39,651 bases of DNA from Escherichia phage MeretOppenheim_Bas102. The stretch lies in sequence record PQ850620.1, one strand, 5' to 3'. The notes below the pieces were generated by a model. It had not been told where the DNA came from. It saw nothing but the letters and a program-made list of their open reading frames with translations, and ran no database searches. The position numbers were made by a program, and so were the translations under genes. Below, in pieces: positions 13,947 through 14,017 of the stretch (its first letter is position 1; each line of letters begins with the position of its first letter).

Positions 13947-13947
13947 T

Positions 13948-13970
13948 TAATTGAACTCACTAAAGGGAGA
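13948..13970 (+). promoter_or_regulatory. T7 RNAP promoter phi3.8
   Basis: TAATTGAACTCACTAAAGGGAGA, the divergent phi3.8-type sequence, directly upstream of gene 4 here. Confidence 0.85.
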
Positions 13971-14017
13971 CCACAACGGTTTCCCTTTGTTCGCAATGTT
14001 GATTAAGGAATAACCAT

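Follow-up and report, generated by a model that had tools for sequence, protein, structure and literature searches.

Between gene 3.5 and gene 4 of the phage studied here lie a T7-type class II promoter, a leader stem-loop and a ribosome binding site, and gene 4 starts directly behind them. The locus was analysed in the context of the whole stretch of DNA (39,651 bases), referred to below as the window. Alignment to T7 showed that the window represents the whole genome of a T7-like phage (Teseptimavirus) in circularly permuted form: positions 2-3562 match T7 36345-39937, and from position 3405 on the match begins at T7 base 1. For most genes the encoded proteins are 85-100% identical to those of T7. 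The features of the locus are the following:

13491-13946, + strand: gene 3.5 (amidase / T7 lysozyme), open reading frame with 96.7% identity to T7 gp3.5, the upstream neighbour
13948-13970, + strand: class II T7-RNAP promoter, equal to T7 phi3.8 (-17 to +6), 23/23 identity
13962-13988, + strand: stem-loop AAAGGGAGACC-ACAAC-GGTTTCCCTTT, from folding and conserved structure; counterpart of the R3.8 RNase III site / 5' leader hairpin of T7
13999-14032, + strand: empty-site segment without T7 counterpart, gene 4 ribosome binding site and first five gene 4 codons (MELEQ); breakpoints by alignment
14018-15718, + strand: gene 4A (primase/helicase, 566 aa), open reading frame with 91% identity to T7 gp4A
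14033-14194, + strand: tract of gene 4 encoding the 4A-only zinc-binding domain, strongly divergent from T7

The stop codon of gene 3.5 (13944-13946) stands immediately 5' of the promoter. A preliminary description of this DNA had reported a phi3.8-type promoter and a leader hairpin, and both were found to be there, placed exactly as in T7, the promoter starting 1 nt further right (13948) than had been given, because of the position of the stop codon. From -17 to +6 the promoter, TAATTGAACTCACTAAAGGGAGA, matches a known active T7 promoter in 23 of 23 positions. The 23-mer occurs in a single copy in the window, as does the 38-mer made up of promoter and leader, with 0 copies expected by chance in either case. 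The transcription start (+1) would be at 13965. Since phi3.8 differs from the class III consensus by 4 mismatches, a consensus scan allowing 3 misses it and a looser scan finds it. The cognate polymerase is encoded in the same genome: gp1 of the window is identical to T7 RNA polymerase in 874 of 883 residues, and the T7 residues are retained throughout in both the specificity loop (739-770) and the AT-rich recognition loop (90-105). The identity of promoter and polymerase suggests that 13948-13970 is a T7-RNAP promoter active in this phage.

The leader that follows the promoter, GGGAGACCACAACGGTTTCCC, forms an 8-bp stem with a 5-nt loop (GGGAGACC/GGUUUCCC) on RNA begun at 13965. The fold of the 56-nt leader has a free energy of -15.7 kcal/mol (z = -2.8), and on read-through RNA the stem grows to 11 bp plus a lower stem (-29.1 kcal/mol, z = -4.0). 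The structure was compared in 12 distinct leader types from relatives with T7-type, T3-type and other promoters. Standard pairs were present in 85.5% of the cells versus 38-67% with the partners slid, three pairs were altered on both sides, and the covariation score was matched by 1 of 500 shuffles; these pair counts understate the pairing, as the MAFFT alignment of the leaders misplaces one or two lineages with an extra stem base. As a check on the alignment-based counts each leader sequence was also folded separately, and in this way a stem of 8-13 bp was obtained at the same place in 12 of the 12 types (e.g. GGGAUGAC/GUUGUCCC and GGGAGGCC/GGUCUCUC). The leader thus has a stable hairpin that overlaps the transcription start and whose structure is conserved among relatives, as in a leader of the R3.8 type.

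In T7, R3.8 is an RNase III site just downstream of the phi3.8 start (PMC6938266). The GenBank entries of T3, phiSG-JL2 and Yersinia phage Y mark a stem-loop or an R3.8 site at this place, the RNase III label of the last two being based on homology annotation. The correspondence in position and fold suggests that RNase III would cleave the leader hairpin in this phage as well. A scan of the whole window with Rfam at the gathering threshold gave no match, so the hairpin is in no curated RNA family. Nearly the same hairpin is formed by the phi10 leader of the window (GGGAGACCACAACGGTTTCTC..., 25952-25995) as by the phi3.8 leader (13948-13988), and the phi3.8 leader in this phage is identical to the T7 phi10 leader (GGGAGACCACAACGGTTTCCC), the one present in pET vectors.

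From the last promoter base to the ATG of gene 4 (14018) there are 47 nt; the short gap noticed earlier was thus confirmed. The Shine-Dalgarno sequence AAGGA (14005-14009) is 8 nt 5' of the 4A start codon. The internal 4B start is at 14207 and its ribosome binding site, GGAGG, at 14195-14199. Taken together, 13948-14017 would be the standard T7-group expression module of gene 4, made up of promoter, stem-loop and Shine-Dalgarno sequence. The stem-loop would form the 5' end of transcripts begun here and would serve as an R3.8-type RNase III processing hairpin on read-through RNA, and the module would in this way both drive and process the primase/helicase mRNA.

The 3.8 junction and the start of gene 4

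Downstream of T7 phi3.8, from which transcription starts at 11180, comes gene 3.8 (11225-11590), and its 3' end overlaps the start of gene 4A at 11565. Gene 3.8 is annotated as an HNH endonuclease and gp3.8 matches Pfam HNH_3 (E=3e-15), as expected from the earlier statement that an HNH gene occupies this interval in T7. In the window no open reading frame orthologous to gp3.8 is present in the 47 nt between promoter and ATG, where the stem-loop is followed by gene 4. When the window was aligned to the T7 3.5-3.8-4 region, a check that had been suggested beforehand, 13850-13998 was found to be 95% identical to T7 11065-11213, and homology was picked up again at window 14033, equal to T7 11586. 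The breakpoints are therefore at 13998/13999 and 14032/14033 of the window, corresponding to T7 11213 and 11586, and 34 nt of the window (13999-14032) stand for 372 nt of T7 (11214-11585), which contain an own ribosome binding site, gene 3.8 and a different gene 4 start. The encoded protein begins with MELEQDS... in the window and with MDNSHDS... in T7.

The difference between the two phages extends into gene 4. Identity along the gene was determined from a MAFFT-based gapped sliding comparison in 90-nt bins. Between the window and T7 it was 71% and then 50% in the first two bins and 89-100% for about 1,250 nt thereafter, and the divergence stops exactly at the ribosome binding site of 4B (window 14195; 4B ATG 14207). 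The T7-specific cassette thus comprises gene 3.8, a new ribosome binding site before it and the 4A-only zinc-binding domain of 63 codons, including the small T7 ORF 4.1; it is bounded by 11214 and about 11741 in T7 and corresponds to 13999-14194 in the window. It is the T7 version of the tract that is the outlier, whereas the window has the typical version, which in the first bin agrees to 89% with a T3-like locus. Similar values were obtained with an independent pair of Klebsiella-type loci, L022 (empty) and L023 (occupied): 72% and 61% in the first two bins, then 93-100%. In both pairs the flanking tract follows the presence of the endonuclease gene rather than the backbone (identity of 50-72% over the initial 180 nt of gene 4 versus 89-100% downstream), and we read the tract 14033-14194 as probably linked to the presence or absence of this gene. 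Between T7 and L023 the endonuclease-linked divergent tracts have no close similarity (77% and 56%), and the 78% identity of the endonuclease proteins is the single observation suggesting a shared origin of the two cassettes.

These alignments bear on the earlier proposal that gene 3.8 was lost from this phage. If a T7-like ancestor had deleted 3.8 in place and kept the promoter, gene 4 would still have the start (ATGGACAAT...) and the zinc-domain tract of T7. What the window has instead is the ribosome binding site TGATTAAGGAAT with the start ATGGAATTAGAACAA, and its 5' tract is collinear with T3-type and other empty sites. Even though 3.8 is dispensable in T7 (bioRxiv 10.1101/2025.09.07.674715) and Salmonella phage Vi06 looks like a possible case of such an event (see below), deletion in place is a very improbable origin of the junction in the window. 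A single deletion leading from the T7 sequence to the empty-site sequence is excluded by the alignment of the 5' part of gene 4.

Other endonuclease genes in the window

Besides loss, relocation of 3.8 within the genome had been proposed, and three open reading frames are candidates for a moved copy, at 10822-11292, at 15766-16191 and in an insertion in gene 5. All three match Pfam HNH_3. When gp3.8 and all other T7 proteins were used as tblastn queries, no gp3.8 orthologue was detected in the window, which agrees with the preliminary description in that the gene is missing; gp3.8 gave matches at the level of the HNH motif only, in two places that were each 37% identical to it, 11005-11181 (59 aa, E=3.5e-8) and 19344-19448 (35 aa, E=1e-3). 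In contrast, true orthologues in other genera, which adjoin the primase gene in Klebsiella, Yersinia and Kayfunavirus phages, align over the full length (121 aa) with 54-81% identity.

The open reading frame 10822-11292 (156 aa) is located 3' of the ligase gene in place of T7 gene 1.4. Its counterpart in phiYeO3-12 is gene 1.45, likewise located behind the ligase gene; the nucleotide identity is about 80% over 660 nt. A homologue of gene 7.7 (72% identity) was found at 22913-23302, the usual position of 7.7. Another HNH gene follows gene 4: a phi4.3-type promoter, TAATTAGACTCACTAAAGGAGCT (15737-15759), is followed by an open reading frame with HNH and helix-turn-helix motifs (15766-16191) and then by gene 4.3, whereas in T7 phi4.3 is directly 5' of 4.3 with no gene between. 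The frame 15766-16191 gave no match in the tblastn search of the window with gp3.8, and it is found in only 7 phage records at a coverage of at least 80%.

Although the two motif-level matches and the shared HNH_3 assignment could be taken as traces of a moved 3.8, the positions of the 1.45-type gene and of the 7.7 homologue and the missing gp3.8 match of the frame behind gene 4 make relocation extremely improbable. The other HNH genes of the window are thus separate elements at their own sites and not moved copies of 3.8. Since the window has an HNH gene at the phi4.3/4.3 junction and T7 has 3.8 at the phi3.8/4 junction, in both genomes an endonuclease gene separates a class II promoter from the gene served by this promoter; 15737-16191 is the mirror image of the T7 phi3.8/3.8/4 arrangement.

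Gene 5 (DNA polymerase) is broken by a 601-nt insertion at 19139-19739. The insertion fits the group I intron model of Rfam over its full length (19129-19729 in the Rfam match; 45 bits, just below the 50-bit cut-off, E=3.8e-10) and holds the HNH_3 frame of 131 aa (19224-19619). Without the insertion gene 5 encodes a polymerase of 704 aa, of which 700 are identical to T7 gp5. T7 gene 2.8 (HNH-like) is absent from the window, with a clean junction at 13039-13060, and so is gene 5.3 (a PD-(D/E)XK endonuclease by Pfam), with a clean junction at 19896-19898; 7.7 is the only endonuclease gene common to the window and T7. Two further genes differ from T7. The gene 5.5 homologue (19915-20211) has just 49% identity to T7 gp5.5, the H-NS inhibitor, with neighbours at 96-100%, and looks like a locally replaced allele. 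An 87-aa frame at 11682-11945 takes the place of T7 gene 1.7 (196 aa, nucleotide kinase) and matches about half of gp1.7 with 38% identity.

Distribution of empty and occupied sites

The nearest relatives in GenBank, 95-97% identical over 13400-14600, all align to the window without a break across the junction. For a broader survey a 96-nt query (13960-14055) containing the hairpin, the ribosome binding site and the gene 4 start was used, and records with a contiguous coverage of at least 80% were counted. The empty junction was found in 151 GenBank phage records from many genera, including T3, phiSG-JL2 and T3-type phages with other promoter specificity; hosts are Escherichia, Klebsiella, Yersinia, Salmonella, Serratia, Shigella, Enterobacter, Pantoea, Erwinia and others. 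In T7- and phiA1122-type records the match covers just the first 39-47 nt of the query, up to the breakpoint. Empty sites of groups with several promoter specificities have the motif TGATTAAGGAAT(A/G)...ATGGAA in common, whereas all occupied sites have another gene 4 start, ATGGAC/TAAT... (MDNS/MLDSDS), and this start overlaps the endonuclease gene at its 3' end.

The two states of the site were also counted in a census of 29 IMG/VR loci encoding gp4 relatives, a small sample whose entries overlap with sequenced isolates. No endonuclease gene was present between 3.5 and 4 in 23 of the 29 loci. In the six occupied loci the endonuclease was 98-100% identical to gp3.8 in three cases (T7-type 3.8) and 78% identical in one; the remaining two had other HNH genes with 49% and 31% identity. 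Promoters of the T7-type pattern in the 3.5-4 interval were located either directly 3' of gene 3.5 or behind one small extra open reading frame, and always upstream of the insertion point; the promoters of the T3-like loci, L022/L023, L025 and L032 were missed by this pattern scan and were read by eye from the junction sequences. A comparable case among near-identical phages has been described in Citrobacter phages: SH5 has a gp3.8-like gene (54%) 5' of the primase gene, and SH4 and Dev2 lack it (PMC4925675). Presence and absence at one fixed site are thus sporadic (6/29 occupied, 23/29 empty), with orthologues next to the primase gene in four genera.

One census locus combines features of both states. 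In Salmonella phage Vi06 (L031, 2960-3045) no endonuclease gene is present between 3.5 and 4, yet the gene 4 start, ATGGATAATATGCTAGACTCTGAT, is of the occupied type, and gene 4 is fused 41 nt after gene 3.5, beside a degenerate promoter-like sequence. This locus may represent a genuine deletion of the HNH gene, in contrast to the window.

In the T3 record (X17255) a "promoter for gene 3.8" and a stem-loop are annotated directly 5' of gene 4A, and in that of phiSG-JL2 a "promoter 3.8" and an "RNaseIII site R3.8" directly before 4A; gene 3.8 is absent from both. Because the junction of the window is collinear with 151 records, and because these two phages have a promoter 3.8 annotated without a gene 3.8, the empty arrangement is the usual one and of ancestral type, and phi3.8 functions as the gene 4 promoter, named after a passenger gene specific to T7. 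That promoter, hairpin and gene 4 follow each other without 3.8 in the majority of the T7 group is already known from the annotation of these records.

Taking into account that a gene which occurs sporadically, at one site and with a divergent flank linked to it bears the signature of a free-standing homing endonuclease gene, the window very likely carries the unoccupied, ancestral-type allele of a homing site, with a standard gene 4 module into which 3.8 was inserted in a minority of lineages. According to this interpretation T7 gene 3.8 would be a free-standing gene for an HNH homing endonuclease. Having entered between the stem-loop and gene 4, it would be transcribed from the promoter that was already there. 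The cassette would bring its own ribosome binding site, would overlap and replace the gene 4 start, and would be linked to the divergent first ~190 nt of the gene, i.e. the primase zinc-binding domain. As far as sequence comparison can tell, the pattern seen between T7 and the window is what homing with co-conversion looks like.

The same pattern could also arise by allelic replacement, if a lineage that once had 3.8 lost it by recombination with a co-infecting phage carrying the empty allele; such an exchange would import the empty-type ribosome binding site, gene 4 start and zinc-domain tract. T7-group genomes are mosaic, and the tract 13999-14194 is sharply bounded relative to T7 with nearly identical flanks, a pattern that recombination in either direction gives. 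However, the junction is empty in all of the closest relatives (95-97%; H1-H11) and empty sites dominate the group, the window contains no remnant of 3.8, and replacement requires an extra step that no data demand. We therefore regard this course of events as unlikely, and prefer the reading that the window represents the unoccupied allele, according to which this phage has, in all probability, lost nothing at the 3.8 site. The loss inferred in the preliminary description is opposed by the 151 empty junctions and by a gene 4 start and 5' tract of the empty-site and not of the T7 type, and the relocation by the low similarity (at most 37% identity, confined to the HNH motif) of HNH genes of which the 1.45-type gene and 7.7 stand in their own positions. 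The direction is thereby corrected: it is T7 that would be the exception, with an inserted selfish endonuclease gene borrowing the gene 4 promoter.

As a discovery this matters little, the arrangement being ordinary. A modest by-product is the boundary of the cassette, which predicts where gp3.8 would cut, namely at the start of gene 4. On this reading gp3.8 would actively home, with a target in or near the empty-site sequence. More tentatively, it is conceivable, if somewhat doubtful, that homing of an endonuclease of the gp3.8 type to the beginning of the primase/helicase gene brings along a strongly divergent form of the zinc-binding domain (63 codons) that resists cleavage. If this were true, each invasion would swap the part of the primase that recognises priming sites, and 13999-14194 of the window would be a natural cleavable target allele. 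A cassette in which the primase zinc-binding domain apparently travels with an endonuclease gene could be of use to studies of homing or of phage-phage competition in T7-like phages.

Comparison with known systems

T7 gp3.8 has been called an HNH homing endonuclease, T7 without genes 2.8, 7.7 and 3.8 is viable, and catalytically inactive gp3.8 is reported to weaken the GAPS4 defence system (bioRxiv 10.1101/2025.09.07.674715). In the literature we found no demonstrated homing or cleavage site of gp3.8. The class II unit of T7 that consists of phi3.8, R3.8 and genes 3.8 and 4 shares with the window the 23-bp promoter and its position directly after the gene 3.5 stop codon, and the leader hairpin differs from that of T7 phi3.8 by one loop base (A for G). 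The first gene downstream of the promoter is different: in T7 it is the HNH gene 3.8, within the 3' end of which 4A starts, whereas in the window it is 4A with its own ribosome binding site.

The Teetreviruses T3 and phiSG-JL2 resemble the window in the succession of promoter, hairpin, ribosome binding site TGATTAAGGAAT and a gene 4A starting with ATGGAA..., without 3.8. They differ from it in that their promoter is of the T3 type (AATTAACACTCACTAAAGGGAGA in T3-like loci) and is separated from gene 3.5 by a small gene, 3.7.

Free-standing homing endonuclease genes of phages, which spread by intronless homing, include the seg and mob genes of T4 and the gene 5.3 endonuclease of the T3 group. 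The 3.8 site shares with these systems the sporadic occurrence of the gene in near-identical genomes, the fixed intergenic site, the use of a neighbour's promoter and the linked divergent flank. Unlike the carriers of such genes, the window has no endonuclease gene at this site and would be the recipient, i.e. the target allele.
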